NCBI RefSeq assembly: GCF_054482595.1
Contig: NZ_CM137008.1
Direction: 5' to 3' (one strand)
Length of the DNA: 64,000 nucleotides
Below, one piece after another: positions 4,631 through 55,054 of the stretch. The translations under genes and the position numbers were made by a program. The stretch's first letter is position 1. Each line of letters opens with the position of its first letter. Below the pieces are notes generated by a model. That model was not told where the DNA came from and did no database searches. It worked only from the letters and a program-made list of their open reading frames with translations.

Positions 4631-4707
4631 TTCAAGGGTGACGGTATGTCATTTTAGCAGATATCACCTTCAGGTGTGGTCAGTTAAACATAAATGAGTT
4701 AGAGAAA

Positions 4708-5505
4708 ATGATTTTTGATACGCATGCGCATGTTTTTGTTCGAGGATTACCATTAGCGGAACATTGCCGATATGTTCCTGATTACGACGCCACACCGGAG
4801 AGTTATCTGACTCACTTGGATCGGTTTGGCATTGATGTTGGTATTCTGGTGCAACCCAGTTTTCTGGGGACGGATAACCACTATATGCTTGAGGCTCTTC
4901 GCCGTTACCCTACCCGGTTTCGTGGTGTAGCCGTTGTGGATCCAAACATTACGCGCTGTAAACTGGATGAAATGGCAAAATTAGGGGTCACTGGTATCCG
5001 CTTAAATTTAGTCGGCGTGGAAATTCCCGATCTTACGCAACCTGCATGGCAACACCTGTTAGAACATATTAAAGCCCTGGGATGGCATGTTGAGCTACAC
5101 AGAGCTGCGCGCGACTTGCCAGCGTTAATTACGGTATTACTTAAATCCGGTGTAAAGATTGTCGTTGACCATTTCGCGTTGCCTTCTCAGGAAGAGAAAC
5201 AAAACGATCCCGGATTTCAGTTTCTCCTTGAGCATGCAGAAACGCAGCAAATCTGGTTGAAACTTTCTGGCGCCTATCGCAATGGCAGTACTGAAACTCT
5301 CAACGATAACGTGGCACCGTTAATTCCTCTCCTGCTGCAGCATTTTGGACCTGCACATTTATTGTGGGGTAGCGACTGGCCACATACTCGATACGAAAAT
5401 GTCGTCAATTATCAAAAAACGTTCGAGTTACTGACGCAGCAAATACCTGATAAAGAAATGAGAAATAAAATTTTATCGGTTAGTGCAGAATCACTTATCG
5501 ATTAG
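4708..5505 (+). CDS. Amidohydro_2 family metal-dependent hydrolase (lactonase/decarboxylase-type TIM barrel)
   Basis: 265 aa; N-terminal DTHAHVF metal-binding motif and C-terminal WGSDWPH motif characteristic of the amidohydrolase-2 (LigI-like) family. Confidence 0.8.
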   Translation: MIFDTHAHVFVRGLPLAEHCRYVPDYDATPESYLTHLDRFGIDVGILVQPSFLGTDNHYMLEALRRYPTRFRGVAVVDPNITRCKLDEMAKLGVTGIRLNLVGVEIPDLTQPAWQHLLEHIKALGWHVELHRAARDLPALITVLLKSGVKIVVDHFALPSQEEKQNDPGFQFLLEHAETQQIWLKLSGAYRNGSTETLNDNVAPLIPLLLQHFGPAHLLWGSDWPHTRYENVVNYQKTFELLTQQIPDKEMRNKILSVSAESLID

Positions 5506-5536
5506 TTGGATTGAGAATATAGTCGAAAGGTATATC

Positions 5537-6886: not shown

Positions 6887-6891
6887 GCATA

Positions 6892-7947: not shown

Positions 7948-7961
7948 GAAACAGGTGAAAA

Positions 7962-8258
7962 ATGAAAATAAACCAGCCCGCCGTTGCAGGCACCCTTGAG
8001 TCTGGGGATGTGATGATACGCATCGCCCCACTCGATACGCAGGATATCGACCTGCAAATCAACAGCAGCGTTGAGAAACAGTTTGGCGATGCCATTCGCA
8101 CCACCATTCTGGACGTTCTCGCCCGCTACAACGTGCGCGGCGTACAGCTGAATGTCGATGACAAAGGCGCACTGGACTGCATTTTACGTGCACGACTGGA
8201 AGCCCTGCTGGCACGCGCCAGCGGTATCCCGGCTCTGCCATGGGAGGATTGCCAATGA
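7962..8258 (+). CDS. citD: citrate lyase acyl carrier protein (gamma subunit)
   Basis: 98 aa, [24 protein letters not shown]...; operon position. Confidence 0.9.
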
Positions 8259-9163
8259 TTTCCGCTTCGCTGCAACAACGTAAAACTCGCACCCGCCGCA
8301 GTATGTTGTTTGTACCTGGTGCTAATGCCGCGATGGTCAGCAACTCCTTCATCTACCCGGCTGATGCCCTGATGTTTGACCTCGAAGACTCCGTTGCATT
8401 GCGTGAAAAAGACACCGCCCGCCGCATGGTTTACCACGCGCTGCAACATCCGCTTTATCGCGATATTGAAACCATTGTGCGTGTAAACGCGCTGGATTCC
8501 GAATGGGGTGTTAACGACCTGGAAGCCGTCGTTCGCGGTGGTGCGGACGTTGTGCGTCTGCCGAAAACCGATACCGCTCAGGATGTTCTGGATATCGAAA
8601 AAGAGATCCTGCGTATCGAAAAAGCCTGTGGTCGTGAACCCGGCAGTACCGGCCTGCTGGCGGCGATTGAATCTCCGCTGGGCATTACCCGCGCGGTAGA
8701 AATCGCTCACGCTTCCGAGCGTTTGATCGGTATCGCCCTCGGTGCAGAAGACTATGTGCGCAACCTGCGTACAGAACGCTCCCCGGAAGGAACTGAACTG
8801 CTGTTCGCTCGCTGCTCCATTTTGCAGGCCGCGCGTTCTGCGGGTATTCAGGCGTTCGATACCGTCTATTCCGACGCTAACAACGAAGCCGGATTCCTGC
8901 AAGAAGCCGCCCACATCAAACAGCTGGGCTTTGACGGCAAATCGCTGATCAACCCGCGTCAGATTGATCTGCTGCACAACCTCTACGCACCGACCCAGAA
9001 AGAAGTGGATCACGCCCGCCGCGTCGTAGAAGCCGCTGAAGCCGCCGCTCGCGAAGGCCTCGGCGTGGTTTCCCTGAACGGCAAGATGGTGGACGGTCCG
9101 GTTATCGATCGCGCCCGTCTGGTGCTCTCCCGCGCAGAACTTTCCGGCATCCGCGAAGAATAA
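8255..9163 (+). CDS. citE: citrate lyase beta subunit (citryl-ACP lyase)
   Basis: Starts at the [10 protein letters not shown] methionine, overlapping the citD stop (ATGA); HpcH/HpaI aldolase-type sequence. Confidence 0.9.
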
Positions 9164-9173
9164 GGCAATCAAA

Positions 9174-10706
9174 ATGACGCAGAAAATTGAACAATCTCAA
9201 CGACAAGAACGGGTAGCGGCCTGGAATCGTCGCGCTGAATGCGATCTTGCCGCTTTCCAGAACTCGCCAAAGCAAACCTACCAGGCTGAAAAAGCGCGCG
9301 ATCGCAAACTGTGCGCCAACCTGGAAGAAGCGATTCGTCGCTCTGGTTTACAGGACGGCATGACGGCTTCCTTCCATCACGCTTTCCGTGGCGGTGACCT
9401 GATCGTCAATATGGTGATGGACGTCATCGCGAAGATGGGCTTTAAAAACCTGACTCTGGCCTCCAGCTCCCTGAGTGATTGCCATGCGCCGCTGGTAGAA
9501 CACATTCGCCAGGGCGTGGTTACCCGCATTTATACCTCTGGCCTGCGCGGTCCACTGGCGGAAGAAATCTCCCGTGGTCTGCTGGCGGAACCGGTGCAAA
9601 TCCACTCTCACGGCGGACGTGTGCATCTGGTACAGAGCGGCGAACTGAATATCGATGTGGCTTTCCTCGGCGTCCCGTCCTGTGATGAATTCGGTAATGC
9701 CAACGGCTACTCCGGTAAAGCCTGCTGCGGCTCCCTCGGCTATGCAATGGTTGATGCCGACAACGCAAAACAGGTCGTGATGCTTACCGAAGAACTGCTG
9801 CCTTATCCGCATAATCCGGCAAGCATTGAGCAAGATCAGGTTGATCTGATCGTCAAAGTTGATCGCGTTGGCGATGCTGCAAAAATCGGCGCTGGTGCTA
9901 CCCGTATGACCACTAACCCGCGCGAACTGCTTATTGCCCGTAGCGCTGCGGATGTGATTGTTAACTCTGGCTACTTCAAAGAAGGTTTCTCTATGCAGAC
10001 CGGCACCGGCGGCGCTTCGCTGGCGGTAACCCGTTTCCTGGAAGACAAAATGCGTAGCCGCGATATTCGCGCCGACTTCGCCCTCGGCGGTATTACCGCA
10101 ACGATGGTTGATCTGCACGAAAAAGGTCTGATCCGCAAACTGCTGGATGTGCAGAGCTTTGACAGCCATGCTGCGCAATCGCTGGCCCGTAACCCCAATC
10201 ACATCGAAATCAGCGCCAACCAGTACGCTAACTGGGGGTCGAAAGGCGCATCGGTTGATCGTCTCGACGTGGTGGTACTGAGTGCGCTGGAAATTGACAC
10301 CCAGTTCAACGTTAACGTGCTGACCGGCTCTGACGGCGTACTGCGTGGTGCTTCCGGTGGTCACTGCGATACCGCAATTGCCTCTGCGCTTTCCATCATC
10401 GTCGCGCCGCTGGTACGCGGTCGTATTCCGACGCTGGTGGATAACGTGCTGACCTGCATCACCCCGGGCTCCAGTGTCGATATTCTGGTCACAGACCACG
10501 GCATCGCTGTTAACCCGGCACGTCCGGAGCTGGCAGAACGTCTGCAGGAAGCGGGGATCAAAGTGGTTTCTATTGAGTGGCTGCGTGAACGTGCGCGTCT
10601 GCTGACCGGTGAACCACAGCCGATTGAATTCACCGACCGCGTCGTTGCCGTTGTGCGTTACCGCGATGGCTCGGTGATCGATGTTGTGCATCAGGTGAAG
10701 GAATAA
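9174..10706 (+). CDS. citF: citrate lyase alpha subunit (citrate CoA-transferase)
   Basis: 510 aa, recognised as CitF. Confidence 0.95.
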   Translation: MTQKIEQSQRQERVAAWNRRAECDLAAFQNSPKQTYQAEKARDRKLCANLEEAIRRSGLQDGMTASFHHAFRGGDLIVNMVMDVIAKMGFKNLTLASSSLSDCHAPLVEHIRQGVVTRIYTSGLRGPLAEEISRGLLAEPVQIHSHGGRVHLVQSGELNIDVAFLGVPSCDEFGNANGYSGKACCGSLGYAMVDADNAKQVVMLTEELLPYPHNPASIEQDQVDLIVKVDRVGDAAKIGAGATRMTTNPRELLIARSAADVIVNSGYFKEGFSMQTGTGGASLAVTRFLEDKMRSRDIRADFALGGITATMVDLHEKGLIRKLLDVQSFDSHAAQSLARNPNHIEISANQYANWGSKGASVDRLDVVVLSALEIDTQFNVNVLTGSDGVLRGASGGHCDTAIASALSIIVAPLVRGRIPTLVDNVLTCITPGSSVDILVTDHGIAVNPARPELAERLQEAGIKVVSIEWLRERARLLTGEPQPIEFTDRVVAVVRYRDGSVIDVVHQVKE

Positions 10707-10709
10707 GTC

Positions 10710-12123
<1,414 letters not shown>

Positions 12124-12148
12124 ATCATTAATATATCCGGAGTTAACT

Positions 12149-26348: not shown

Positions 26349-27659
26349 TCAATACAATTCAGATTCCAGTTTTCCGTTCCCTGCAATTTTATTTAGTCCG
26401 GGAGAGTTCAATCTCTCCAGACATAACGAAAACAGTTCAACACCTGTATCCAGCACATTTTCATCAAAATCAAAATCAACTTCGTGATGACCTGCTTTTA
26501 AATCACTGCCAAGTATTATATATGCAGCTTTTCCTCCTCTCTTCTGTACACGGCGAATAAGGATCGTTGCATCTTCACTGCCCCCAAATGATTTATCTGT
26601 CAAAGACATGTTCATATCTTCTTGTGCTATATAGTGTATCAGATTGACAAGTAAAGGGTCATTATGTAAATCCGTTGCTTCACCAACCACTTTGTACTCA
26701 AAACGTAAACCAAATATGGAAGAAATACCTTGTGCTATTTTTAGAGCATGTTCACGCATGTATTGATTTATTGTTTCCGTTTCTCCACGAACTTCAAGCT
26801 GCATCCTTGCAAAAGACGGGATTATGTTCCTTCCTTCACCTGCGTTTAGAGTGCCAATATTTATCCGGGACATACCTTCACCATGGCGTGGAATGGCAAG
26901 TAATTGCGTTGCACAGTGACAAGCTGCTGCCAGTGCATTATTTCCCAGGTGAGGATTTACACCAGCATGTGCCGGAGTACCATAGAAAAAGAAATCCATT
27001 TTTGTCGTACACAACAAATCTGTAGGTGAAGCGACAACATTTCCTGTAGGAACTCCCATACCAATATGTGCAGAAAGGAAGTAGTCGCAGTCATCAAGAA
27101 TACCACCTTCTGCAATAGGTTTTGCACCGCGAACGCCTTCTTCTGCAGCCTGAAAAATTAGCTTAATTTTCCCGCATAACTTATGGTTATTTTCAGATAC
27201 CCATTGTGCCAATCCTAAACCAATCGATATATGACCATCATGTCCACATGCATGCATTAAGCCAGAGTGTATGGATGCAAATCCCATTTTTTCAGGAATA
27301 TGATCTTTCGATTTTGATTCACTTACCTGTACACAATCAATGTCAAAACGAAACGCAGTGACAGCTCCATTTTTTCCTGTATCCCATAAAGCAACACACC
27401 CTGTAAAGCCATCCATTTCATCCAGCAATTCATGGGGAACGCCTGAATCAACTGCACGTTTTATACTATCTGCAACTTCAGTTGCATTACGGCCCATAAT
27501 ATATTCTATTGACAGGTATTTATTCCCCGTAATAACCTGCCATCCCATACCACGCAGAATAGTAATTATCTTTGACGTTGTGATAAATTCGCACCACCCA
27601 CTTTCCGGAATATGGTGAAATTCTCTCCGCCATTTTTGTAACTGATTCAGTTCAGACAT
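26349..27659 (-). CDS. M20D family amidohydrolase (AbgA/HipO-like)
   Basis: 436 aa; HACGHDGH and other M20 metal-binding motifs. Confidence 0.85.
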   Translation of the reverse strand: MSELNQLQKWRREFHHIPESGWCEFITTSKIITILRGMGWQVITGNKYLSIEYIMGRNATEVADSIKRAVDSGVPHELLDEMDGFTGCVALWDTGKNGAVTAFRFDIDCVQVSESKSKDHIPEKMGFASIHSGLMHACGHDGHISIGLGLAQWVSENNHKLCGKIKLIFQAAEEGVRGAKPIAEGGILDDCDYFLSAHIGMGVPTGNVVASPTDLLCTTKMDFFFYGTPAHAGVNPHLGNNALAAACHCATQLLAIPRHGEGMSRINIGTLNAGEGRNIIPSFARMQLEVRGETETINQYMREHALKIAQGISSIFGLRFEYKVVGEATDLHNDPLLVNLIHYIAQEDMNMSLTDKSFGGSEDATILIRRVQKRGGKAAYIILGSDLKAGHHEVDFDFDENVLDTGVELFSLCLERLNSPGLNKIAGNGKLESELY

Positions 27660-27671
27660 ATACGCCTCCTG

Positions 27672-28961
27672 TTAAAGGAATAATAATGCAATAAACAATA
27701 CCGTCACAATCATTCCGGGGGCAGTGCGTTTTGCAATTTCAACTGGATTAACTCCAGCCAGACCGGCACAGATAATAGTTGCACCAGCCAACGGAGACAT
27801 GTTTCTCCCCAGCGCAGAAGCCAGCATAACTGCAGCACCCAGAGTATTTGTATCGTAACCAAAATTGTTCGCATGTGGTGTGACAACTTCATTGAATGCG
27901 AATGCAGTCGCATCCCCTGTTCCGGTTATAAGTCCCATCAGGAATGGCCCCAATGTACCGCCCCAGCGGGCAAATTCTGGTGAGTCAATAAGAAATCTGA
28001 TAAACACATCAATGATACCAACAGATTTTAAACCTTCAATGAAAACAGCTGCGGCAATTATGATCCCAAGAATATTTGCATATGATGTCCCCATACCCTC
28101 AAAGAAGCTGGAAACTAATTCTTTGGGATTGGATTTACTGACAATCAGGGCATAAAGACAACCGAGAATCATTGCGGCTGGAACGGTTATTTTAGTCTCT
28201 CCAAGAAAACCAAATTCAGCCAGCATAAGTAATGCTATGGGAAGAAATGGTGCTACAGATTTCAGATAAAAACAGATACCACGGTCAGTGAACTCAACCT
28301 GTGTTTGTTCTGATATGTTTCCTGCAGAATCACATTTTGTTTCTTTTCTTACAATAGCAACAACTGTAAGAATAACAGCACATATTACACCACATGTTAT
28401 CGTAGTCGGAGTATGGAATACAACGAATTCCATTAATGGTGTTTGTGATATTTTAGATATAAATGCATTATGTGCAACACCGGGATTGAGGTAAGCACCT
28501 ATAGTTCCTGAAAGGATAGCTGCCCCGGCTATTGCAGGATGAATACGTGCTGAAATAAGTAATGGTATCAACGTTGCACCAACAGCAGCTGATGCGCCAG
28601 CAGCAGATGGAATCGCGATGCAAATAATAAAACTGACGGTAACCGCAGCAGGAATAAGAAAGATACCAAGACGAGATAATCCTTTCGTTAGAAAATGAAC
28701 CAGGCATGTATCACAACCAGTGAATTTCATAACACAGGCAAAGCCCATACTGGTACAAATAGCCTGAATAAGGCCGGACTCAGTCATTCTGCTTGCAAAT
28801 GCCGAAAATGCGTTTAAAGGTGACATGGCAACTATACATAGCAGAAGACCTGCACCAATTAGTGTCGTTCGTGTGTCGTATCTTTTTATCAAAAGCACAA
28901 CTGTGATTATCAGAATCACACATCCAGTTATCACGTTAAACATGAGATCCACCTCCTTCAA
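27672..28961 (-). CDS. DcuC-family anaerobic carrier-type membrane transporter
   Basis: 429 aa polytopic membrane protein with DcuC-like C-terminal pattern; forms an operon with the M20 gene (12 bp gap). Confidence 0.65.
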   Translation of the reverse strand: MKEVDLMFNVITGCVILIITVVLLIKRYDTRTTLIGAGLLLCIVAMSPLNAFSAFASRMTESGLIQAICTSMGFACVMKFTGCDTCLVHFLTKGLSRLGIFLIPAAVTVSFIICIAIPSAAGASAAVGATLIPLLISARIHPAIAGAAILSGTIGAYLNPGVAHNAFISKISQTPLMEFVVFHTPTTITCGVICAVILTVVAIVRKETKCDSAGNISEQTQVEFTDRGICFYLKSVAPFLPIALLMLAEFGFLGETKITVPAAMILGCLYALIVSKSNPKELVSSFFEGMGTSYANILGIIIAAAVFIEGLKSVGIIDVFIRFLIDSPEFARWGGTLGPFLMGLITGTGDATAFAFNEVVTPHANNFGYDTNTLGAAVMLASALGRNMSPLAGATIICAGLAGVNPVEIAKRTAPGMIVTVLFIALLFL

Positions 28962-29078
28962 AGATAGATAATCTTTACTTTATGTGATTTGCTCAAATAT
29001 TGATCATGAACAAAAAAAACAATTAACCGGGGATACTATTATGATGGAGGTGATAACAGAAAATTATCAGGCGAAAAA

Positions 29079-29996
29079 ATGAAACATATGCCTAAACTTC
29101 AACAAATTAAATTTTTTAATGAAATAGTCCTGTGCGGAAGTTTAAGATCTGCCGCCCGTAAAATGAATATATCTCAGCCAGCATTAAGCAGAACGATAAA
29201 AGAATTGGAGAATGTATTAGGATGTAACCTTCTGATTCGAACAAGGGATGGTATCGTTTTAACAGAAGCTGGAAAGATATTCTCGGTCCATTCACGTATG
29301 ATTCTTGAAGAGGTTGAAACTGCAGCTCTTGAAGTTGCGAAAGTAAATATAGATAACACAGGGAAAGTAGCTTTTGGAATTTCTTCGCTGTTTGGCGTAA
29401 CAATACTGAATAATGTACTTGATAACTTCCGGATGAAATATCCGAAAACGCGTGTGATGATAAGAGAGGGACAGTTGTCTTCCCTTATCCCTTACCTGAG
29501 AGAAGGTGTTCTGGATTTTGCAATGGGTACATTAACAAAAGACATGCCAGTTGGAGATTTTATTGCGGTTGAATTGTTTAACGCACCGTTCACTATAGTG
29601 GCAAGAAAACACCATCCTTTAAGGAACTGTACATCAATTGATGAACTTGCAACTGCAAGATGGGTATTCCCGGAAACTCAAATGGGATACTATCATTATA
29701 TATCCCGTCTTATTCCCTTTGGACATCCTGATGAACCATATGCTCCAATATTTACCGATTCGGTAGTTTGTATTATGAATCTTGTTCTCTATGATGACTA
29801 TATAACGGTTCTCTCCAGAGCAAGGTTACAGGAAGCAAGATTCAAAGAAATATTGTGTTCAATTCCTGTTAAGTATCAACTACCCGTTAGCCAGTACGGG
29901 CTTATTTATCCACGAAAAAGGTTAATGACGGCACCAGCACAAATAATGATTGAATATTTTCAACAAGAGATACAACGATATGACTGGAATGGATGA
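29079..29996 (+). CDS. LysR family transcriptional regulator
   Basis: 305 aa; N-terminal HTH (LRSAARKMNISQPALSRTIKELE) and LysR substrate-binding domain; divergent from the transporter/hydrolase operon. Confidence 0.85.
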   Translation: MKHMPKLQQIKFFNEIVLCGSLRSAARKMNISQPALSRTIKELENVLGCNLLIRTRDGIVLTEAGKIFSVHSRMILEEVETAALEVAKVNIDNTGKVAFGISSLFGVTILNNVLDNFRMKYPKTRVMIREGQLSSLIPYLREGVLDFAMGTLTKDMPVGDFIAVELFNAPFTIVARKHHPLRNCTSIDELATARWVFPETQMGYYHYISRLIPFGHPDEPYAPIFTDSVVCIMNLVLYDDYITVLSRARLQEARFKEILCSIPVKYQLPVSQYGLIYPRKRLMTAPAQIMIEYFQQEIQRYDWNG

Positions 29997-41992: not shown

Positions 41993-42032
41993 AAGAATGA
42001 ACAACTGCCCCATGTGGATATGGGGCAGGATT

Positions 42033-43037
42033 TTATTGATTAGCGGCGATAATAAGAACAATACCCACAATGTATGAAATAAACATAGTCAGCAGCAGTT
42101 TATTGGTTCCGGCTGGCGCACTGGCAAATTCTCTCCAGATGAAGACTCCCCAGATCACGGCAATCATTGTGGCACCCTGTCCCAGACCGTAGGAAATGGC
42201 ATAACCCGCCTGACCAGACGCAATCAAACTGAATGCCAGACCGACACACCAAATCATACCGCCCAGCCAGCCGCAAACATGATCCCGTAAACTCCCGGAA
42301 AAATACATTTTCCTGTAGACCGGTTCTCCTGAAATAGGCTTTTTCATGACCAGCGTGTTAAGGACAAAGTTCGACAAAAACAGCCCCACTGCAAACAGAA
42401 CAAGTGCTGAGTACGGCGTCATCAGACCGCTGGCAGGCTGGCTGAAATTGTCAGACATGGAGTCCGCCAGGAAGCGGAAAAACCATCCCATGATGATACC
42501 CGCAAGAATGGCAGTGATGAGGCCTTTGTTACGGCGAGATTTATCCGCCTCCTGCGTGACACGGCCATAGGCTATCGCGGTAAAAATAATGGCGATCACA
42601 ACGCAGGCGACACCGAGGAACAGAATGAGCGGATCGCCCTGCGGATTGCCGATATAGGTGGTGATCACACCCAGAGCCAGTGCCAGCCCCACCCCCACAG
42701 GAAAAGCTACCGCCATACCGGCAAGATTAATAGAAGCCACCAGAAGAATATTGGAAATATTGAAGATAATCCCTGCCAGTATTGCCGACATCAGACTACT
42801 GCTGCTCGCCTGCTGAATATCAGGTATAAAGCTGCGACCGGCTTCGCCCATAGAACCCAGAGTGAAGGCAAATAACAAAGAACACAGCAATAATCCAATT
42901 GAATAATCCCAATAGAATAGAGGGAACTCCCATTTTTTATTACTGACAAGTTTAGTTGTATTCGCCCATGAACCCCAGCAAATCATGGTAATAAAACACA
43001 TTATTATGGCGACAGCATACGATTCCACGATAAACAT
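42033..43037 (-). CDS. DMT-superfamily sugar transporter (glucose/ribose porter-like)
   Basis: 334 aa, about 10 TM segments, resembles GlcU/RbsU-type sugar uptake proteins; family call tentative. Confidence 0.55.
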   Translation of the reverse strand: MFIVESYAVAIIMCFITMICWGSWANTTKLVSNKKWEFPLFYWDYSIGLLLCSLLFAFTLGSMGEAGRSFIPDIQQASSSSLMSAILAGIIFNISNILLVASINLAGMAVAFPVGVGLALALGVITTYIGNPQGDPLILFLGVACVVIAIIFTAIAYGRVTQEADKSRRNKGLITAILAGIIMGWFFRFLADSMSDNFSQPASGLMTPYSALVLFAVGLFLSNFVLNTLVMKKPISGEPVYRKMYFSGSLRDHVCGWLGGMIWCVGLAFSLIASGQAGYAISYGLGQGATMIAVIWGVFIWREFASAPAGTNKLLLTMFISYIVGIVLIIAANQ

Positions 43038-43140
43038 AAATAACTCCTTGTGGTAGTTACAATCAATCGTTGTGGACAGAGGGCATAACAGCCATTCCTC
43101 GAATGGCTGTTATATGTTATTAATTAAAATAAAGCTGTAA

Positions 43141-43782
43141 TTACGCTTTCAAACCATACGTTTTGAATTTTTCAAGAACGATGGTCATTTCGGCTTCAGA
43201 CAGAACGGGAACATCGTGATGTAATCCGCCACATTTGATGTATAAATCAGCCAGCGTCTCAGTTTCACCCGCCAGCCACAACGTCTTTTCCAGCGTGACG
43301 TCCATGGCCAGCATACCGTGGTGCTGCATCAGTAAGGACTTACTTTCTCTGATTCCTTGAGATACACTGTCGGCCAGTTCAGGGCTGCCAAAGGTATAAT
43401 AGGGAATACAGGGAATATGATCCGTCCCCGATACCGCCACCATATAATGAATAGCCGGAATTGAATGATTATGTATTGCCACCGCCGTGGAATTCACCGC
43501 ATGCGTATGTATGACAGCATTCAATTCTGGTCTGGCTTTATAACACGCCAGATGAAATAGCCATTCACTTGATGGTATTTTACCCGCTTCAGGTATTCCC
43601 TTATCGTCTACAAAGACAATCATGTCCGGCGTCATCTTTGAATAAGCGATCCCACTCGGTGTAATCAACATGCCACCGGTATATCTGGCACTCACATTAC
43701 CTGATGTTCCTTGATTCAGACCTGACGCATTCATTTCCCGACAAATGGAAATGATATTTTCTGCTAACTTAATCCTTTCCAT
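43141..43782 (-). CDS. class II aldolase/adducin family protein (MtnB / L-fuculose-phosphate aldolase-like)
   Basis: 213 aa with conserved His-rich metal site (HTHAVNSTAVA, LMQHHGMLAMD). Confidence 0.8.
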   Translation of the reverse strand: MERIKLAENIISICREMNASGLNQGTSGNVSARYTGGMLITPSGIAYSKMTPDMIVFVDDKGIPEAGKIPSSEWLFHLACYKARPELNAVIHTHAVNSTAVAIHNHSIPAIHYMVAVSGTDHIPCIPYYTFGSPELADSVSQGIRESKSLLMQHHGMLAMDVTLEKTLWLAGETETLADLYIKCGGLHHDVPVLSEAEMTIVLEKFKTYGLKA

Positions 43783-43812
43783 TACTGCTCCTTAACAGAA
43801 GTGATCGTCGTT

Positions 43813-44928
43813 TTAATGCAGCTCGTCCTGGAGTGCTTTACTCTTCAGGTCAGCAAACATATCCGCCAGAGCTGACTTACTGGCAGCACAGACTCCCCGT
43901 TCAGTAATGAGGCCGGTAATGTATCGGGCAGGCGTGACGTCGAAAGCGTAGTTCCCACAACGGGTTCCTTCAGGGGCGGTATTGACCCAGCTCAATTCTC
44001 CCTGAGTATTTATCCCATAGACATGGGACTGCTCTTTTCCGTCACGTTGCTCAATCGGAATGGTTTTTCCGTCCTCGATAGTCCAGTCAATAGTGGGAGA
44101 AGGTAACGCGACGTAGAAGGGAACATGGTTATCATGGGCCGCCAGCGCCTTAAGATAGGTACCAATTTTATTACAGACATCCCCTCTGGCCGTGGTTCGA
44201 TCGGTCCCCACTATACAGAGATCAACGTCACCGTGTTGCATCAGGTGGCCACCCGCATTGTCGGCAATCAGGGTGTGAGGAATACCGTGTGAACCCAGTT
44301 CAAATGCCGTGAGTCCACCCTGATTACGTGGCCGCGTTTCATCCACCCAGACGTGAACAGGGATTCCGTTTTCATGCGCTTTATAGATGGGAGAAAGCGC
44401 GGTTCCCCAGTCTACAGTCGCCAGCCAGCCTGCGTTACAATGTGTCAGGATATTGACCACACTCCCGGCCGATTTTTTCTGGGCTATTTCGCGGATGACT
44501 TCTGCACCATGTAATCCAATTTGTTCACACAACGCGACATCTTCCTCGGCAATTTCTGCCGCCAGCGCCCAGGCCACATCCTTGCGCTCTGATACACAGA
44601 GATCCTTCAGTGTGGCTATCATCCTGTCGAGAGCCCATTTGAGGTTAATTGCAGTTGGTCGGGTTTTGATAAGAAGGTCATAGTAACGCTGCAGACCTAC
44701 GTCACTGGCATTGTGGTTCATTCCCAGTGCGATACCATATGCCGCAACGACACCAATAAGCGGGGCGCCACGAACCCACATCTCCTGAATAGCCGCAGCG
44801 GCCATTTCCGCAGAGGTAAGCGCCACCACTTCAAACTTAAAAGGCAGCTTAGTCTGATCGATGATCTCTACCGCTTTTCCATCCCCGGAAACCCAGACCG
44901 TTCGGTAGTGTTTACCTTTAATATTCAT
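43813..44928 (-). CDS. S-methyl-5-thioribose-1-phosphate isomerase family (MtnA/eIF-2B-like)
   Basis: 371 aa; MtnA-like sequence pattern throughout. Confidence 0.85.
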
Positions 44929-44937
44929 AATGACCTC

Positions 44938-46197
44938 TTACTTAACCTTCGCAGACTGGATGACGGAGTCCATATTTTTAAACTGGCGGGCATTGACAAT
45001 AAGATCGCGCGCCATGGTCAATGCACGTCGTTCACATTCTGCGCGAAGCTCTGTATTTTCAATCTGTTTCAGCTCGGCAACGCCAGCAAAACCAATGATC
45101 CGGCGATTCATTTCCATGCCGGCATTCACCAGGGAATCTTCAAGCAGCGTGGCAAAAAACTGATCCTGTGCGTCCTCAAGAGCGGCCCTGTTCTGTTGAT
45201 ACATTTCTGTCGGCCACGCGTCACCCTGTGTTTTGTTGTCCCAGAGCTGGCGGAACTCCCGGGTGAAAACTGACCAGGTGTGGACAATCTGCTGAAGTAG
45301 CCATTCCTGATAGTCAGCGCGACGTTGCTCATTTGCATCCCACCCAGGGCGTGAGAAGAACGCCAGCAGGAGGTTGCCAATATAGTTGCCGATATCAAAC
45401 GCCATTGGTCCCATGAAACCGAACTCCGGATCAATCACTTTGGTATCCGTGTCGGTCACCATGATTGAGCCTGAATGAAGGTCACCATGTAACAATGCCT
45501 GCGCTTCTGTCATAAATTTGTACTTATAACGCATGGCAACCTGGAGCATCTCTACATCAGCCCAGGCCTTATGGACGGCATCGTCCAGCTCAGGAGAAGT
45601 CCAGTTATTCCGTTCCGCGTTGTAATAGGGCTCTGTGAAGATCAGATCTTCCGTAATTTTGCACAGCTCATGATTTAACGCGAACTCAGCAGTAAGCGCT
45701 TTTTTCTGTTCTGCTGACATGCCAATGTCAGACGTATTAAAGAGAGTCTGTGCTAAAAATCTGCCGATATCTTCAGCTAGCTTAGGGAATTTTTTACCGT
45801 TAATCAGTCCCTTACGCAGAATTACGTGAGGCGTCAAATACTCCATGGCAAACAGTGCCATTTCCGGGTCATAAAAATAGACCTGGGGAATCAGTGTGTG
45901 ACCCGCGTACTTGGCTTCCTGACATAAGACGTTGTACTCAAAGCCCGCACGGCTCAGAGATAAAGGCCATCCTTCGCCCCCTGCACGAAGCCAGGGCAGA
46001 GCTTGTTTTACAATGATGGTTTTATGTGTCCCCTTAACGATAAACACCATGTTCAGGTTTCCGTCCCCCACTTCTGAAACTTTCCACTCTTCTGGTAACC
46101 CTCCCGGTTCGCATGAAGGGGTCAGTCTGGACGAGAGATAACCAGGCAGCGTGTCACATGTCAGCGGCTTGTAACCTGATGGAATTGAATCCGTCAT
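44938..46197 (-). CDS. S-methyl-5-thioribose kinase family (MtnK-like)
   Basis: 419 aa; aminoglycoside-phosphotransferase-like kinase with MtnK-type motifs (HGDLHSGSIMV, DPEFGFMGP). Confidence 0.85.
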   Translation of the reverse strand: MTDSIPSGYKPLTCDTLPGYLSSRLTPSCEPGGLPEEWKVSEVGDGNLNMVFIVKGTHKTIIVKQALPWLRAGGEGWPLSLSRAGFEYNVLCQEAKYAGHTLIPQVYFYDPEMALFAMEYLTPHVILRKGLINGKKFPKLAEDIGRFLAQTLFNTSDIGMSAEQKKALTAEFALNHELCKITEDLIFTEPYYNAERNNWTSPELDDAVHKAWADVEMLQVAMRYKYKFMTEAQALLHGDLHSGSIMVTDTDTKVIDPEFGFMGPMAFDIGNYIGNLLLAFFSRPGWDANEQRRADYQEWLLQQIVHTWSVFTREFRQLWDNKTQGDAWPTEMYQQNRAALEDAQDQFFATLLEDSLVNAGMEMNRRIIGFAGVAELKQIENTELRAECERRALTMARDLIVNARQFKNMDSVIQSAKVK

Positions 46198-47395: not shown

Positions 47396-48508
47396 ATGAA
47401 AAAAATTACAGTGGCACTTTCTGTGGTTGCGGCATCTGTTCTGATGGCAATGTCTGCACAAGCGGCAGAAATCTATAACAAAGACGGTAACAAACTGGAT
47501 CTGTACGGCAAAGTTAATGCAGAGCATTACTTCTCTTCTTCAGCTAGTGATGACGGGGATAAAACTTATGCTCGTATGGGTTTCAAAGGTGAAACTCAGA
47601 TTAATGACCAGTTAACCGGTTTTGGTCAGTGGGAGTACGAATTTAAAGGTAACCGTACTGAAACTGAAGGTTCTGATAAAGATAAAACTCGTCTTGCGTT
47701 TGCAGGGCTTCGCTTTGGCGATTATGGTTCGCTCGACTATGGTCGCAACTACGGTGTAGCTTATGATGTTGGCGCTTGGACTGACGTGCTGCCGGAGTTT
47801 GGTGGAGATACCTGGACTCAGACTGATGTATTTATGACCCAGCGTGCTACTGGCGTAGCGACCTATCGTAACAATGATTTCTTCGGCTTGGTTGATGGTC
47901 TGAACTTTGCTTTGCAGTATCAAGGTAAAAATGATAGTGCTGCAAAAGTGAATAACTGGAAAGGCCGTGACGAAGTTGAATCTAATGGTGATGGCTTTGG
48001 TCTGTCAGCTACTTACGATTATGAGGGATTTGGCGTTGCTGCAACCTATGCAAAATCTGACCGTACTGATGGGCAGGTATCCTATGCTAAAGACAGCCCT
48101 CTGAATGCCTCTGGTAAAACTGCTGAAGTATGGGCTACGGGCCTGAAATATGATGCAAACAACATTTACCTGGCTGCAACTTATTCTGAAACTCAGAATA
48201 TGACAGTCTTCGGTGATGACCATATCGCAAACAAAGCGAAAAACTTTGAAGCTGTTGCTCAATACCAGTTTGATTTCGGCTTGCGTCCGTCCATCGCTTA
48301 CCTACACTCTCGCGGTGAAAATATTGGTGCGTTCGGTAACCAGGATCTAGTTGAATACATCGACGTAGGTGCGACTTATTACTTCAACAAAAATATGTCC
48401 GCTTTCGTTGACTACAAGATCAACCTGATTGATGAAAGTGAATTTACCAAAGCATCTGAGGTTGCAACCGACAACATCGTTGCTGTTGGTATGACCTACC
48501 AATTCTAA
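47396..48508 (+). CDS. outer-membrane general porin (OmpC/OmpF/PhoE family)
   Basis: 370 aa; signal peptide [39 protein letters not shown] start and C-terminal ...VGMTYQF. Confidence 0.9.
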
Positions 48509-48761: not shown

Positions 48762-49616
48762 CTAAGCGAGATTATGGTTTTCAAATTGTTCCGGGCTGAG
48801 ACCGCCACAGGCACTGTGACGACGCCAGCGATTGTAATCACACTCGATATAATTAAACACCGTTGCCCGCATTATTTCCCGGCTGCTAAAGCGTTCCCCG
48901 TGGATACATTCCACCTTCAGCGAATGAAAGAAGCTTTCCACACAGGCATTGTCATAACAGTAGCCTTTCGCACTCATACTGCCACGCAGGTTGTGTCGCT
49001 TCAGCAGCGCCTGATAATCCCCTGAACAGTATTGACCACCACGGTCCGTATGAACAATGACGCTTTCCGGGCGTCTTCTCCGCCACAACGCCATTTGCAG
49101 TGCATCACAGGCCAGTTGTGCTGTCATTCGCGGTGACATCGACCAGCCAATGACGGCGCGTGACCACAGGTCGATGACTACTGCGAGATACAACCAGCCC
49201 TCATCGGTACGCAAGTACGTGATGTCACCCGCCCACTTCTGGTTCGGGCCACTGGCGCTGAAGTCCTGCTCCAGCAGATTCTCCAATACGGGCAGACCAT
49301 GTGCACGGTAGCTGACCGGGCTGAACTTCCGGCTGGCTTTCGCCCGCAGCCCCTGACGACGCAGGCTGGCGGCAATGGTTTTAATATTGAACTCCGGCAG
49401 TTCGTCAGCAAGGCGGGGATCACCGTATCGCTGCTTTGCCTCAAAGAATGCCTTATGGACAGCGGCATCGCAGGTGAGCCGAAACTGTTGGCGCAGGCTC
49501 ATCTGGTGACGACGCCTGAGCCAGACATACCAGCCGCTGCGGGCAACCCGAAGTACACGACACATCGCTTTGATGCTGAACTCTGCCCGATGATTTTCGA
49601 TGAAGACATACTTCAT
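48762..49616 (-). CDS. IS3 family transposase OrfB (DDE integrase domain)
   Basis: 284 aa with DDE region ([10 protein letters not shown]...HTDRGGQY...[11 protein letters not shown]). Confidence 0.9.
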
Positions 49617-49912
49617 TTCAGGCGCTTCGCGAAGTATGTCGCGGCCTTTTGGAGGATGGCCAGTTCCTCAGCCTGCTCCGCCAGTTGTCGTTTAAGGCGG
49701 ACATTTTCAGCGGCCAGTTCGCTTTCGCGCTCTGACGAACTCATTTGTTGCTGCTGTTTACTGCGCCAGGCATAAAGCTGAGATTCATACAGGCTGAGTT
49801 CACGGGCTGCGGCGGCCACACCGATGCGTTCAGCGAGTTTCAGGGCTTCGTTACGAAATTCAGGCGTATGTTGTTTACGGGGTTTCTTGCTGATTGATAC
49901 TGGTTTTGTCAT
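49613..49912 (-). CDS. IS3 family transposase OrfA
   Basis: 99 aa [47 protein letters not shown]... Confidence 0.9.
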
Positions 49913-50244
49913 GAGTCACCTCTGGTTGAGAGTTTACTCACTTAGTCCTGTGTCCACTATTGGTGGGTAAGATCACGGCGGGGTTAGGTGCGTGCGCTGA
50001 ACAAAATGACGAAGGTAGGAATGCCAGAAAGCGTGCGTATTGCCTGACGGTAGCAACCAGCTGAAGGGATGCTTATCCCCAAACCTGATTTATTCAACAA
50101 AGCCGCTATAGCCTTACCAGAACAATCACCACCTCCCCTGGAGGTGGTCAAGAATACAGCTCTGGCGAGCCGCATACCTTTAATTACCTGCTCTGATTAG
50201 ATAAATCAGATGCAGGTACATAAGTATGCCAGCATTATATGCAA

Positions 50245-51435
50245 TTAACGTTTCCGTCCTGGAAATACAAATAGTGCAATAACGGGAGATATTACCATCA
50301 GAACAAAAACATAGGTAAATCCAAGTGTAAATCCGCCTGTTAGATCGACCGACCAGCCAATTAACTGACTGTTTATCGTTGCCAAAATAAATGTACAAAC
50401 CCAGAAGGTGGACATTGAATAAGTAACAGTTTGGGTATTCGCATTTTTTTGTTCTTCTTTTGGAATGGAGAAGATGAATGCAAACCAGGTGGCAAAAATA
50501 GAACCCGTCAAAAACGAACAAACCAATATAACGATATCATTAGTGGCAAATAACATTGCAAAGGTTGTAATAGCCATAAAGATACTGGAAATAAATAGCC
50601 ATGATTTATAATTATACCCACGGTTTTTAAAGTACGGCCCCATCAATGCACCAAGTAAAATTCCCACCTGATTGACTGTGCCACTCAAGTGAGCACAGGA
50701 GTCAGGGGGAAGATTAGCATATTTTGCATAGTACAGAGGCAGAAATGTGAACATAAAAATCATCATGATCATTGCCCCAGCATACTGAATAATCATTCCC
50801 CAGACAATACGATTAAACAATACATCCTTTAATACAGATATTCGCTGTTCATAACTTATAGATATATGGCTATTCTGTTGTTGCTCTTCATCCGTGAAAC
50901 ATATTATCCAGACAACCCCCAATATTAACGTAATTATTCCATAGATAGCTAACAGATTACGCCACCCGTTGAACAGCAGTGATAAATAACCTGCCAATGT
51001 CAATGCAATAATTGTACCGATAATATTTGAAGTGCAATTTATACTATTTAATGTTGACGCCATTTTGTTATCGAAAAAGCGAGCAACCGTGGGCACCAGT
51101 GATACAAGGCAAATAGCCCCCCCCAGCCCACCAAGAAAACGAATAATCAATAACAAAGTAAAGTTATTAATAAATGGAATGAGCAAGGAGCTCCCAATCA
51201 TTATACATCCAAGAAAATAGGATTTTCGGGTGCCGAGCCGGGAAACAAAGACTGCAGTACAAACAGCTCCCACAATTTTAGCCCATAAAATTACATTTGA
51301 CATCAATGCAGCATGTGATACATCAACATTAAAATCACTCATAATTTGTGGCATTACGGCCCCTGTCGTAGCCCAGGCGGCACCAAATACCATATAAACG
51401 GTGTAAAGAATGAATTCAATGACCCATTTTTTCAT
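50245..51435 (-). CDS. MFS transporter
   Basis: 396 aa, about 12 TM segments; AT-rich gene; start overlaps the stop of the upstream pepT-like gene. Confidence 0.8.
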   Translation of the reverse strand: MKKWVIEFILYTVYMVFGAAWATTGAVMPQIMSDFNVDVSHAALMSNVILWAKIVGAVCTAVFVSRLGTRKSYFLGCIMIGSSLLIPFINNFTLLLIIRFLGGLGGAICLVSLVPTVARFFDNKMASTLNSINCTSNIIGTIIALTLAGYLSLLFNGWRNLLAIYGIITLILGVVWIICFTDEEQQQNSHISISYEQRISVLKDVLFNRIVWGMIIQYAGAMIMMIFMFTFLPLYYAKYANLPPDSCAHLSGTVNQVGILLGALMGPYFKNRGYNYKSWLFISSIFMAITTFAMLFATNDIVILVCSFLTGSIFATWFAFIFSIPKEEQKNANTQTVTYSMSTFWVCTFILATINSQLIGWSVDLTGGFTLGFTYVFVLMVISPVIALFVFPGRKR

Positions 51436-52685
51436 TTTTGTACCTCAGGGACACTTAGCTCAACCATTTCCAGCAGCATTTCACTGGCAAGACGCAGGGA
51501 TTCCACAGGCAAAAACTCTCTGGTTGAGTGAAAATTGTGCGCCCCTGTAAATATATTAATAGTAGGCAGCCCTTTTGGGGTGATGACGCTACCATCATAA
51601 CCACCGCGCATAATCAGTGGTTTTGGTGTAATGCCAAGGTTACGCATTGCCTTTCTAACGTTATCTAAGATTGCAGGTGTTTTATCAAGCGCTGGTTTGA
51701 CATTTTCATATATATCGGTTAACACTAATGTTATTCTTTCACTCTTCCAGCGCTGATTAATACTCTTAACAATGTTCTCGAGTACGGCTTTACGTTGTTT
51801 ATATCCTGTTAACTCAAAGTCCCGAATAGCAATATCAAGCGTGGCGCTGGCTGTATCACCATGGAGATTATGGACCCAATAATATCCTTCCCGTTTTTCA
51901 GTATGCTCAGGCCTTTCTTTTTCAGGTAATGCGGCGATAATTTCCGTTGCTATACACAACGCATTAACAAGCTTACCTTTAGCACTCATTGGATGTGCTG
52001 TAACACCACGAACTGTAATTCGTGCACTACCTGCATACCAGTTTTCAACAACATATTCTCCAATCTCACAACAGTCGAGACAGATACCAAAATCAGAATT
52101 CAGTTCACCAACATCAAGCGCTTTTGCCCCTCTGATACCGGTCTCCTCATCAGGCAAAAGAACAAGACGAATATCACCATGAGAAAAGGAGGGTGTATTA
52201 ATCATATATTTGAGAGCTTCAACACCTGCTGCAATGGCAGCTTTGTCGTCAGCCCCCAGCAAGCTGGTGCCATCAGTTACAATAATATCCTGACCGATAT
52301 AGTTGAGTAGTTCTGGATTATCCTGTGGGGATAGTTTTTCCACACTCCCTGCAAACGGTATAGCACCTCCGTTATACTTTTTCACTCGGAAAGCATGTGT
52401 ATCTGTACTGTGGTCCGGAGCTGTATCAAGGTGTGCAAAGAATACGATAGAAGGTGCATCAGGAATATTAGCGGGTAAATGAATTGTGGCAATAGCATTT
52501 TCTTTTATGCTTGTTTGTACCTCTGGAACATCAGAAAATTGATTTACAACATATTCTGCCAGTTTATATTGATTTTTACAGCTTGGAAGCTCCTTGCTAC
52601 CATCAACCGATGTCGTATTTATTTTTGTGTAATATAAAAAAGTCTCAATTATTTTCTCTAAGTCAATGCGTTTTTTCATGATCAT
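51432..52685 (-). CDS. peptidase T-like tripeptide aminopeptidase (M20B)
   Basis: 417 aa; PepT-like motifs (FFAHLDTAPD, GADDKAAIAAG, LLPDEETG); AT-rich, so likely a horizontally acquired paralogue. Confidence 0.85.
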   Translation of the reverse strand: MIMKKRIDLEKIIETFLYYTKINTTSVDGSKELPSCKNQYKLAEYVVNQFSDVPEVQTSIKENAIATIHLPANIPDAPSIVFFAHLDTAPDHSTDTHAFRVKKYNGGAIPFAGSVEKLSPQDNPELLNYIGQDIIVTDGTSLLGADDKAAIAAGVEALKYMINTPSFSHGDIRLVLLPDEETGIRGAKALDVGELNSDFGICLDCCEIGEYVVENWYAGSARITVRGVTAHPMSAKGKLVNALCIATEIIAALPEKERPEHTEKREGYYWVHNLHGDTASATLDIAIRDFELTGYKQRKAVLENIVKSINQRWKSERITLVLTDIYENVKPALDKTPAILDNVRKAMRNLGITPKPLIMRGGYDGSVITPKGLPTINIFTGAHNFHSTREFLPVESLRLASEMLLEMVELSVPEVQK

Positions 52686-53076
52686 ATACCTAATTGTTTA
52701 CTATCAATATCCTGACTATCTATATTTAGATAATATCCTGCAAAAATTAGTGAGTATAGAAAAGGTCGTCAGTTCCTGACTGGTAAATGTCCCTTCGAGA
52801 TTTATTAGAGTCATAATTTGCCTCATCCCAATACAAAAAACAATACGAAAGTATGAAAAAGTGTAGTGATCAACAAAATATTGCCACGTTTGTTTCGGTG
52901 TTATTGGAGAGGTTTTTGGTGTTTTGTCCTTACGAGCATCACGCAGTTGTTTGCCCCATCTTGTCATCGTGGAAAGGCGACATCAATAGCTTGGTGTAAC
53001 TCTGGTCAACAACCAGTTGCACGGAGTTGCATATGAATTCAGGAGCTTTTCACTGGTGCACCTATATTGGCATATC

Positions 53077-53196
53077 TGAACCGCCCCGGAAATCCTGGAG
53101 ACTAAACTCTCTGAGAAAGAGGCAAACAGGATGACTAAAAAAACACGTTTTTCCCCCGAAGTCCGTCAACGGGCAGTTCAATGCTTTGTCGAATAA
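53077..53196 (+). mobile_element. IS629/IS3411-like (IS3 family) left end with first about 20 codons of orfA
   Basis: TGAACCGCCCCGGAAATCCTGGAGACTAAACTCTCTGAGAAAGAGGCAAACAGG then ATG..MTKKTRFSPEVRQRAV, then a premature stop. Coordinates approximate. Confidence 0.6.
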
Positions 53197-53602
53197 ACAT
53201 TTACCTGAACGATTAACTGCAACGGCTATCCTTACCGACAATCAACGTCAATAAAAATCTGTACTGACTCGTCAGCACTGGGTTCGATCAGTAGGAACAT
53301 GAATTCAAAGGCCTCCTTGCTGAATCTCAAGACTCCTCCGATTCCAAAGATAAACCCCGTCTTAAGTTCGCTGGCCTGAAATTCGGTGACTATTGTCTAT
53401 ATCGGGATCACCACGGTTGTGTGATTAATCATCGTCGATCATAAAGCGTCTATGGATGTACTGCGGCGTTCCTGCTACTGGTGATCACCCTGTGGTTGTG
53501 CAATTCCAAACGGATGAAGCGAGAGTAACAGACATCACGCCGCAATCGGGGGCGGCGTGTAGACGTGGTTAATTACTATCAAATATATTAATCAGGCCGA
53601 TT

Positions 53603-55054
53603 CTATTTGCTTTCATTTATGGTTTCCATCATGAGCTGTTGCTGCTTTTCTTTGGACAGTCGAGCGATACCAAAGCCTGTGAACCCCCACAGCGTCGCAA
53701 AGAAAATGCCACTCCAGCAGAGAATAGCCCACGGAAGATAGCTTAATGTAGCAACGCCAAGTGTACCTGCCATGTAGGCACCCGCGGCAGTCCAGGGCAG
53801 AATTGGTTCAAATATGGTGGCAGAGTCTTCTACAGTCCTTGCCAGATTTTTTGGATGTAGGCCGCGCTCAATATAAGCACTTCGTAGCATTTCAATCGGA
53901 ATCAGGATTGATATCTGACCATTACAGGTCACGCTAATCATTGTTAAACCACAGGCAATAGTCGCAAGAATCATGGTTCCTGTGGAATGAACTAATTTGA
54001 GCAGATTATGGACGATGACTTCTAAAGCGCCGCTCAAGGCTAATGTTCCTGCAAATGAAAGGGCGCAGAAACAAATAAGCAACGTACTCATCATCGAGTT
54101 CATGCCACCGCGGTTTAACAAATTACCTAATAGCGGATTAACATCTTTATCGGTAAGCATTGAAACGTTAAATCCGTCTACTGCACTTTTAACAATGTCG
54201 TGTAGTGCGAACCCCTGAATAACGCTGGCGTTGATCATGGCTACCAGTGCCGAAACAAGCATAATTGGAATGGTTGGTTTCTTGGTAATCGAACCGTACA
54301 GGACAATGGCAATGGGTAGCAATAACAATAAATTAAAATGATAAATTCCTTTTAATCCTTCAGTGATTAGCTGAATTTTTTCGGGAATGGTTGAGCCGCC
54401 GAGCTCGCCATTCATCCCATAGAGCGTCATAACAAAGGCTGACAGTATCAATGAAGGAAGGGTTGTATAAAGTAAATGAGCGATGTGTTCATAGAGATCT
54501 ATCTGGGCTGCCATTGCGGCTAAGTTAGTATCACCAGAAAGGGGAGACAGTTTGTCCCCGAAGTAAGCCCCTGCCACAATAGCGCCTGCAGTTGCTGCCA
54601 GATTAGCCTCCATTCCGATAGCCACACCCATAAACGCAACACCGACGGTGCCTGCGGATCCCCAGGATGTCCCTGTGCATACAGAAACGACGGCAGTAAC
54701 GAGCAGGGCCGTCACATAGATCATGGAAGGATTTATCAGAATAAGGCCGTAATAAATCATCAGCGGAATAGTACCGCCTATCATCCATGTCCCAATCAGG
54801 AGGCCCACGCTGATCAAAATTAGCAGAGCAGGCATTGTTTTAGCGATTTTCTGCGATATTGATTCAAGGATTGCATTGTAGCCATACCCCAACCGCTTAA
54901 CTAACAGTGCAGCAATGACGGTTGAAAGAACCATTAATGGCTCAGGTGGCAGATCGAATGCCGCATAACCAAATCCCAGCAATAGTATCATCGCTAGTAT
55001 TGGTAATAATGATTCCACCAGAGTTGGGGATCTTGGAGTATTGTTATTATTCAT
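53603..55054 (-). CDS. NhaC-family (Na+/H+ antiporter-like) membrane transporter
   Basis: About 483 aa from MNNNNTPRSP; polytopic membrane protein with NhaC-family pattern; AT-rich. Confidence 0.75.
   Translation of the reverse strand: MNNNNTPRSPTLVESLLPILAMILLLGFGYAAFDLPPEPLMVLSTVIAALLVKRLGYGYNAILESISQKIAKTMPALLILISVGLLIGTWMIGGTIPLMIYYGLILINPSMIYVTALLVTAVVSVCTGTSWGSAGTVGVAFMGVAIGMEANLAATAGAIVAGAYFGDKLSPLSGDTNLAAMAAQIDLYEHIAHLLYTTLPSLILSAFVMTLYGMNGELGGSTIPEKIQLITEGLKGIYHFNLLLLLPIAIVLYGSITKKPTIPIMLVSALVAMINASVIQGFALHDIVKSAVDGFNVSMLTDKDVNPLLGNLLNRGGMNSMMSTLLICFCALSFAGTLALSGALEVIVHNLLKLVHSTGTMILATIACGLTMISVTCNGQISILIPIEMLRSAYIERGLHPKNLARTVEDSATIFEPILPWTAAGAYMAGTLGVATLSYLPWAILCWSGIFFATLWGFTGFGIARLSKEKQQQLMMETINESK

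Follow-up and report, generated by a model that had tools for sequence, protein, structure and literature searches.

Within a 64,000-nucleotide stretch of contig NZ_CM137008.1 (RefSeq assembly GCF_054482595.1; the whole stretch is hereafter the window), two adjacent genes encode a metallopeptidase of the M20B type that resembles peptidase T (PepT) and a major facilitator superfamily (MFS) transporter, and on balance the two probably constitute a self-contained, horizontally mobile catabolic cassette that imports a compound and then hydrolyzes it (Table 1). The MFS protein would act as a cation symporter that brings in a small peptide-like amide, probably one with a carboxylate, the most likely substrate being a tripeptide or a tripeptide-like conjugate with a free N-terminus. 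The Zn-dependent PepT-type peptidase, presumably located in the cytoplasm and made from the same transcript as the transporter through a 4-bp translational overlap, would then hydrolyze the imported compound to amino acids. We infer the direction of transport, the class of substrate, and co-transcription.

Linkage of the transporter subfamily to M20 hydrolases

One genome from each of 100,044 species was scanned, which identified 21 transporter loci; tblastn was applied to these and to further gene contexts retrieved by exact-protein look-up. An M20 hydrolase adjoins every full-length relative of the transporter that was inspected, from 93% down to ~27% amino acid identity, and the reading frames of the two genes usually overlap or nearly abut; in Buttiauxella agrestis, a truncated fragment of the transporter forms the sole exception to this linkage. 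For transporters with 54–100% identity to that of the window, the gene directly upstream is of the PepT type and ends at the transporter start, an arrangement also seen with tblastn in the homologous loci. The taxa with a PepT-type partner include Escherichia coli (both alleles, described below), Escherichia sp., Kluyvera, Salmonella, Citrobacter braakii, five Buttiauxella species, Scandinavium-like isolates, Psychromonas, Vibrio, and a metagenome-assembled genome of Arcobacter. For transporters with about 27–49% identity, the partner is an M20D amidohydrolase (TIGR01891, HipO/CpsA-like), as found in Photobacterium proteolyticum (two loci), Vibrio sinensis, Campylobacter, Helicobacter, and two metagenome contigs, and one transporter with 35% identity has a PepT-type partner. 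Beyond the pair itself, the flanking genes differ from genus to genus, with no regulator or accessory enzyme conserved, and the housekeeping, unpaired pepT of Campylobacter has no MFS neighbor of this kind. Across 16 pairs, the identities of the peptidase and of the transporter to their respective homologues are correlated (r = 0.97).

The hydrolase partner has been exchanged between PepT-type and M20D enzymes while the transporter was kept, and this exchange is the strongest argument available here that the transporter feeds amide substrates to the hydrolase beside it. The linkage of the transporter subfamily to M20 hydrolases likewise supports the idea of import followed by hydrolysis. A preliminary description of this locus had proposed that a dedicated MFS importer is coupled to a tripeptidase and that the two handle a specific peptide or peptide-like conjugate; the functional coupling is strongly borne out by the M20 neighbor in every full-length context and by the correlated divergence, while import and a specific substrate stay at the level of a suggestion.

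Two of the M20D contexts contain additional genes. In P. proteolyticum (locus L027), a LysR regulator, D-serine ammonia-lyase (two copies), and a GntP permease are present, and in V. sinensis (locus L028) there is a CdaR-type regulator and a glycerate kinase gene has been inserted between the hydrolase and the transporter. These contexts offer hints that serine- or glycerate-yielding acyl conjugates may be the substrates at these loci.

The peptidase

The peptidase scores above all three of the curated NCBIfam cut-offs for peptidase T (NF009920, 455.2 bits with a cut-off of 293; NF003976, 430.8 with a cut-off of 255; and TIGR01882, 319.2 with a cut-off of 285.75) and matches the solved PepT structures 1FNO and 1VIX (E = 3e-76), with the alignment to 1FNO collinear across residues 10–412. 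Precomputed Pfam assignments for an identical protein (P0107) give a two-domain architecture of a catalytic domain (PF01546) and an inserted lid/dimerization domain (PF07687). Based on the alignments to 1FNO and 1VIX and on 17 sequences from the transporter-paired clade, the metal ligands His78, Asp140, Glu174, Asp196, and His379 and the catalytic residues Asp80 and Glu173 are all kept (Salmonella numbering); this numbering, reportedly that of the 1FNO paper, agrees with the positions extracted in the alignment. The conserved residues and the above-cut-off scores predict that the peptidase is catalytically competent. The N-terminal sequence, read directly, has no hydrophobic signal-peptide-like stretch, such that the peptidase is presumably cytoplasmic and its substrate would have to enter the cell.

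Despite these shared features, identity to the Salmonella PepT (1FNO) is only 36.7%, compared to ~48% for the Campylobacter-type PepTs, and the peptidase belongs to the NF009920 (Campylobacter-like) subfamily. Several motifs, including HPMSAKG, AHNFHS, and the DCC that follows the Asp ligand, differ from the enterobacterial PepT and were considered as marks of a new specificity, yet were rejected as they are common to the unpaired Campylobacter-type PepTs. A protein cluster with the source label ‘peptidase T [Escherichia coli]’ (P0224; 359 members) represents a Campylobacter-type sequence (MDIVERFINYTKINTTT...) and not the enterobacterial PepT, and this label may be the result of contamination or mislabelling.

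The transporter

The transporter was assigned to Pfam MFS_1 (PF07690; E = 7.3e-36), with a weak match to MFS_4 as the only other domain hit. A profile search among 1.84 billion representative proteins returned 32 representatives at E ≤ 1e-30, followed by a steep fall-off in score, and by this measure the transporter is part of a very small and distinct MFS subfamily; it is not a member of any curated subfamily. Several features make it look more like a symporter than a drug exporter. The closest family by both sequence and fold is the anion:cation symporter (ACS) family, and the conserved basic residues K53 and R99 sit in transmembrane helices. The motif C of the drug:H+ antiporters (DHA; G-x8-G-x3-G-P-x2-G-G in transmembrane helix 5) was sought in the transporter, and no such pattern was present. 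Matches to efflux models were weaker than the match to the ACS model, with 35–37 bits for the Bcr/CflA and multidrug models (TIGR00710, 35.2 bits with a cut-off of 200.9).

A sequence search of solved structures with the transporter returned no match. An AlphaFold2 (AF2) model based on a 50-sequence alignment is all-helical, with a predicted local distance difference test (pLDDT) score of 88.7, and a fold search of the PDB with this model returned 441 MFS matches at E ≤ 0.001. The best of these is the galactonate:H+ symporter DgoT (6e9n; template modeling score, 0.82), then G6PT and sialin (8u3h), with NorA, SPNS2, and FLVCR close behind, and identity to the fold-matched structures is 13–16%.

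Gene layout and transcript signals

The TGA of the peptidase gene and the ATG of the transporter gene share 4 bp (ATGA) in a junction that reads ...CAAAAATGAAAAAATGG, as the preliminary description had claimed for the stop of a PepT-like gene and the start of an MFS gene, and this overlap would couple the translation of the two genes. With both genes on the same strand, no minus-strand terminator-like site between them, and a stem-loop solely after the second gene, co-transcription is likely because of the 4-bp overlap. The stem-loop that follows the transporter stop lacks a clear U-tract, and the plasmid-borne allele (see below) possesses a strong hairpin at the same site (z = −3.8); it may serve as a transcript end or as a stabilizer.

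The best sigma-70-like match in the leader upstream of pepT (9 of 12 positions, 52707–52678) occurs at chance frequency, and an Rfam scan of 49900–53700 at E ≤ 1 found no riboswitch or leader RNA, with two chance-level matches only. An FNR-like site read by eye at ~52707–52694 (TTGAT-N4-AACAA) was dropped from consideration, as it is too near the start codon for activation and is confined to the two E. coli alleles. In four Buttiauxella species (loci L017, L019, L020, and L023), a perfect palindrome (TTCATAATATGAA) occurs ~100 bp upstream of pepT and is absent from the E. coli alleles; this palindrome could be a genus-specific operator.

The AT-rich character of the DNA noted in the preliminary description held, with a GC fraction of 0.37–0.44 over 50250–52750 compared to 0.49 for the whole window and 0.53–0.58 for the adjacent insertion sequences (IS), as did the proposed flanks of an IS3 copy and an IS629-like remnant. 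ISEc16 is located downstream of the gene pair and the remnant upstream, where the latter is 91–96% identical to the ends of IS3/IS1203 transposase genes in >4,600 E. coli records (megablast); IS1203 is an isoform of IS629. Positions 50000–53600 of the window match E. coli O157:H16 strain Santai (NZ_CP007592.1) at 100% identity, and the surroundings there are a mosaic island of yjh genes, an integrase, and CP4-like prophage remnants. Open reading frames at ~26–29 kb of the window have coordinates 204 bp below those expected from the Santai record, indicating that the window either has at least one indel relative to that record or represents a close relative.

Table 1. Features of the cassette and its surroundings, with positions in the window
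Feature	Position	Strand	Basis and remarks
PepT-type M20B metallopeptidase gene	51432..52685	minus	417-amino-acid open reading frame; RefSeq start at 52679 gives 415 amino acids, annotated ‘pepT: peptidase T’
MFS transporter gene	50245..51435	minus	396-amino-acid open reading frame; fold with 12 transmembrane helices
ATGA stop/start overlap of the two genes	51432..51435	minus	Sequence read directly
Leader upstream of pepT, common to both E. coli alleles	52680..52760	minus	Alignment with the plasmid allele; ribosome-binding site and weak promoter-like hexamers
Stable stem-loop directly 3' of the transporter stop	50165..50244	minus	RNA fold, −31.9 kcal/mol; z = −4.9
ISEc16, IS3 family, orfA/orfB with programmed frameshift	48762..49912	minus	NCBIfam NF033516, 320 bits; RefSeq annotation
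IS3-family IS1203/IS629-like remnant, ~100 bp	about 53077..53179	not assigned	megablast
NhaC-family transporter and PatB/MalY C-S lyase genes	53603-56339	minus	TIGR00931, 593 bits; TIGR04350, 369 bits; overlapping reading frames

Distribution, mobility, and selection

The cassette is present in 23 of 5,426 complete E. coli genomes and in only three of the 72,556 plasmids in PLSDB. Two alleles can be distinguished. Nine of the 23 carriers possess the window allele, which is chromosomal, while the other 14 possess a second allele with 87% nucleotide identity to it, and 12 of these 14 copies are located on plasmids of ~62–68 kb from human isolates (urine is the stated source for two of these plasmids in the collection records inspected). 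The alleles are homologous only over about 50179–52760, beyond which the flanks consist of different IS elements. Horizontal acquisition of the cassette is well supported, as it is rare in E. coli, low in GC, represented by two diverged alleles of which one is plasmid-borne, and bounded by IS elements, with inter-allele homology confined to the cassette. The earlier claim of an extra, horizontally acquired copy is upheld by this distribution together with the low identity to the Salmonella PepT; a canonical chromosomal pepT is presumably located elsewhere in E. coli. The E. coli alleles have 38–41% GC and the Kluyvera and Salmonella copies 46–55% GC, a difference suggesting that the donor was probably a lower-GC organism.

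Between the E. coli alleles, the synonymous divergence (dS) is 0.558 and 0.557 for the two genes and the ratio of nonsynonymous to synonymous divergence (dN/dS) is 0.11 and 0.09. Both genes are under purifying selection with a dN/dS of about 0.1, and the equal dS and low dN/dS indicate that both are functional and have travelled together.

Alternative explanations

Several observations weigh against a cassette for import and hydrolysis. The Pfam scan of the transporter found no PTR2 domain (PF00854), placing it outside the POT/PTR2 family, the MFS family known for the transport of di- and tripeptides, and while the ACS model (TIGR00893) is its best NCBIfam match, the score of 83.8 bits is far below the cut-off of 395, so that ACS is the closest family and not one to which the transporter can be assigned. 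Fold matches among MFS proteins discriminate poorly. Very few residues set the paired PepT clade apart from the unpaired Campylobacter-type PepTs (S82A, F169L, Y193I, A250R, S362T, C368T, and SIYE to ST(R/K)E after His379), which leaves a special substrate plausible only; S82A adjoins the His78/Asp80 motif, and the loop after His379 has reportedly been proposed to bind the C-terminus of the substrate. With respect to regulation, a promoter consensus scan was at chance level (15 sites compared to 10 ± 3.7 expected), and no upstream motif, regulator, or operator was found to be conserved across the genera. The transporter gene is also not always intact, being frameshifted in Escherichia sp. MOD1-EC7003 and Vibrio owensii (L024:1949-3135 and L034:3967-5052, as split tblastn matches), and in C. 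jejuni NCTC 11168 the Campylobacter orthologue, cj0987c, has become a pseudogene (PMC12795558), whereas that of strain NW carries a 649-bp deletion (PMC2669091). The transporter has decayed repeatedly while the hydrolase remained, and such decay in several lineages suggests that any benefit is conditional. Finally, a literature search for pepT with MFS, hipO with its neighbors, and M20 with MFS uptake found no characterization of either protein.

Were the substrate not special, the pair would amount to generic and redundant peptide scavenging, with an ordinary broad-specificity aminotripeptidase and an MFS protein that imports ordinary small peptides or amino acids. The peptidase does pass the curated peptidase T equivalog cut-off, has few clade-specific differences from the unpaired Campylobacter-type enzymes, and lacks a regulator or accessory enzyme conserved beside the pair, yet generic scavenging is unlikely, as E. 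coli already possesses PepT along with Opp, Dpp, and Dtp, and redundancy of this kind is hard to square with the strength of purifying selection and the repeated horizontal spread. The transporter subfamily is, moreover, very small and specialized, and its other branch partners with aminoacylase-type enzymes, which act on N-acyl amino acids and not on ordinary peptides. It is less likely again that the MFS protein is an exporter of the hydrolysis products or of a toxic peptide-like compound, with the pair providing detoxification, resistance, or secretion. The sequence cannot give the direction of transport, many MFS_1 proteins export, and the weak Bcr/CflA and multidrug matches, along with NorA among the fold matches, could be taken to favor efflux; however, these efflux-family matches are far under their cut-offs and weaker than the match to the ACS symporters, antiporter motif C is absent, and there are no biosynthetic or immunity genes conserved nearby. 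A cytoplasmic hydrolase coupled to a transporter, where the type of hydrolase is interchangeable, is a better fit to the delivery of a substrate than to the removal of a product.

The neighboring genes for an NhaC-family transporter and a PatB/MalY carbon–sulfur (C-S) lyase raise the prospect of a larger pathway, such as the breakdown of cysteine- or glutathione-S-conjugates, in which the peptidase would trim the peptide and the lyase would cleave the C-S bond. All four genes lie on one strand within 6 kb, and M20 peptidases and PatB-type lyases are partners in the catabolism of Cys-Gly conjugates by skin bacteria. The two pairs are nevertheless separated by the IS remnant, a psiE pseudogene fragment, and a terminator-like hairpin after nhaC, and they occur independently, with nhaC-patB present without pepT-MFS in other E. 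coli (e.g., AVS0533) and pepT-MFS unaccompanied by nhaC-patB on plasmids and in all other genera examined; this independent distribution largely refutes the link and makes a shared pathway very improbable. That the peptidase and transporter genes are themselves unrelated passengers, brought together by accident in an IS-bounded fragment, might be expected for a region that is a mosaic of such fragments, but is scarcely credible given that the pairing with a stop/start overlap recurs in >20 species and contigs with entirely different flanks and that the two genes co-diverge, and accidental adjacency is refuted by this conserved synteny.

Comparison with known systems

The cassette peptidase shares its two-domain architecture, five metal ligands, and catalytic residues with peptidase T (MEROPS M20B; Salmonella 1FNO and E. 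coli 1VIX), and unlike the canonical pepT, from which it is also set apart by its low identity and its NF009920 subfamily, the gene is joined in an operon-like manner to an MFS gene. The closest parallel in logic is the abgABT system for the utilization of p-aminobenzoyl-glutamate in E. coli, where a secondary importer is likewise encoded next to a cytoplasmic M20 hydrolase for a peptide-like amide, and other operons that combine an M20 hydrolase with a dedicated importer are similar. The abgABT system differs in that the AbgT transporter is not an MFS protein, AbgA and AbgB are M20D and not M20B enzymes, and it has a LysR regulator, whereas none is conserved at the cassette. The cassette is a familiar design, as in abgABT, around an uncharacterized transporter family. 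A transporter with a cytoplasmic hydrolase is a commonplace design, and both genes already receive correct family-level annotations from automatic pipelines.

Among transporters, the ACS family (DgoT and sialin/SLC17) provides the best NCBIfam score and fold match and shares the basic residues in transmembrane helices, but the window transporter differs in its sub-threshold score and in its low identity to the solved structures. Members of POT/PTR2 (DtpA-D and DtpT) are importers of di- or tripeptides with an MFS fold, a family from which the window transporter is distinguished by the missing PTR2 domain. NgtA, an MFS glutathione importer of Francisella, is a precedent for the import of an intact tripeptide by an MFS protein outside the POT family (preprint 10.1101/2023.02.02.526638). 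The likeness to NgtA (Pht family) is a functional analogy only.

The MFS protein of Campylobacter (cj0987c/cj0986c) is a full-length homologue of the window transporter, with 37% identity over about 400 amino acids, and its gene is immediately upstream of that for a 383-amino-acid M20D enzyme of the aminoacylase type and not a PepT. This enzyme is a putative HipO, judging by its sequence and by the gene order from hemN to Cj0985c. Hippurate hydrolysis distinguishes C. jejuni from other Campylobacter species. As the hippurate hydrolase of C. jejuni is cytoplasmic (preprint 10.64898/2026.07.27.739834), it too would need an importer.

A broader proposal, which is tentative and at present possible rather than probable, is that the transporter represents an unrecognized and very small MFS family that imports amides resembling peptides, either tripeptides or N-acyl amino acids, with each member tied to an adjacent cytoplasmic M20 hydrolase and the partner swapped between PepT and HipO types. 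Hippurate uptake, for which the importer is missing, would then be the role of the Campylobacter member, and E. coli would have in the cassette a mobile trait, by now plasmid-borne in human urinary isolates, for the use of a specific tripeptide-like compound derived from the host or the diet. If correct, this would provide a function for an uncharacterized transporter family and a route for the uptake of small peptides and acyl-amino acids that is independent of Opp, Dpp, and POT. It would also supply a candidate hippurate importer beside the Campylobacter M20D gene that is putatively hipO, and point to a trait of niche adaptation that passes between the chromosomes of enterobacteria and plasmids carried by E. 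coli from human urine. Such transporters can also let in peptide-mimetic antibiotics.

Other modules in the window

Several other modules are present in the window. A second module of an M20 hydrolase and a transporter occurs at 26349–29996, consisting of a 436-amino-acid M20D amidohydrolase (TIGR01891, 261 bits), a DcuC-family carrier (NF037994, 444 bits), and a divergent LysR-type regulator. At about 4700–14750, there are a GntR regulator, an amidohydrolase, an MFS transporter, a complete citrate lyase set (citCDEFXG), and a second acnB, with coordinates that were taken from the Santai record and are possibly ~200 bp off in the window. An extra OmpC-like porin gene (47396–48508; NF007841, 532 bits) has a TnpB/InsQ pseudogene on one side and ISEc16 on the other. 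A cluster at about 42030–46197 contains mtnK (methylthioribose kinase), mtnA, a fuculose-phosphate-aldolase-like gene, and a GRP-family sugar transporter and resembles the dihydroxyacetone phosphate (DHAP)-shunt salvage cluster of extraintestinal pathogenic E. coli.

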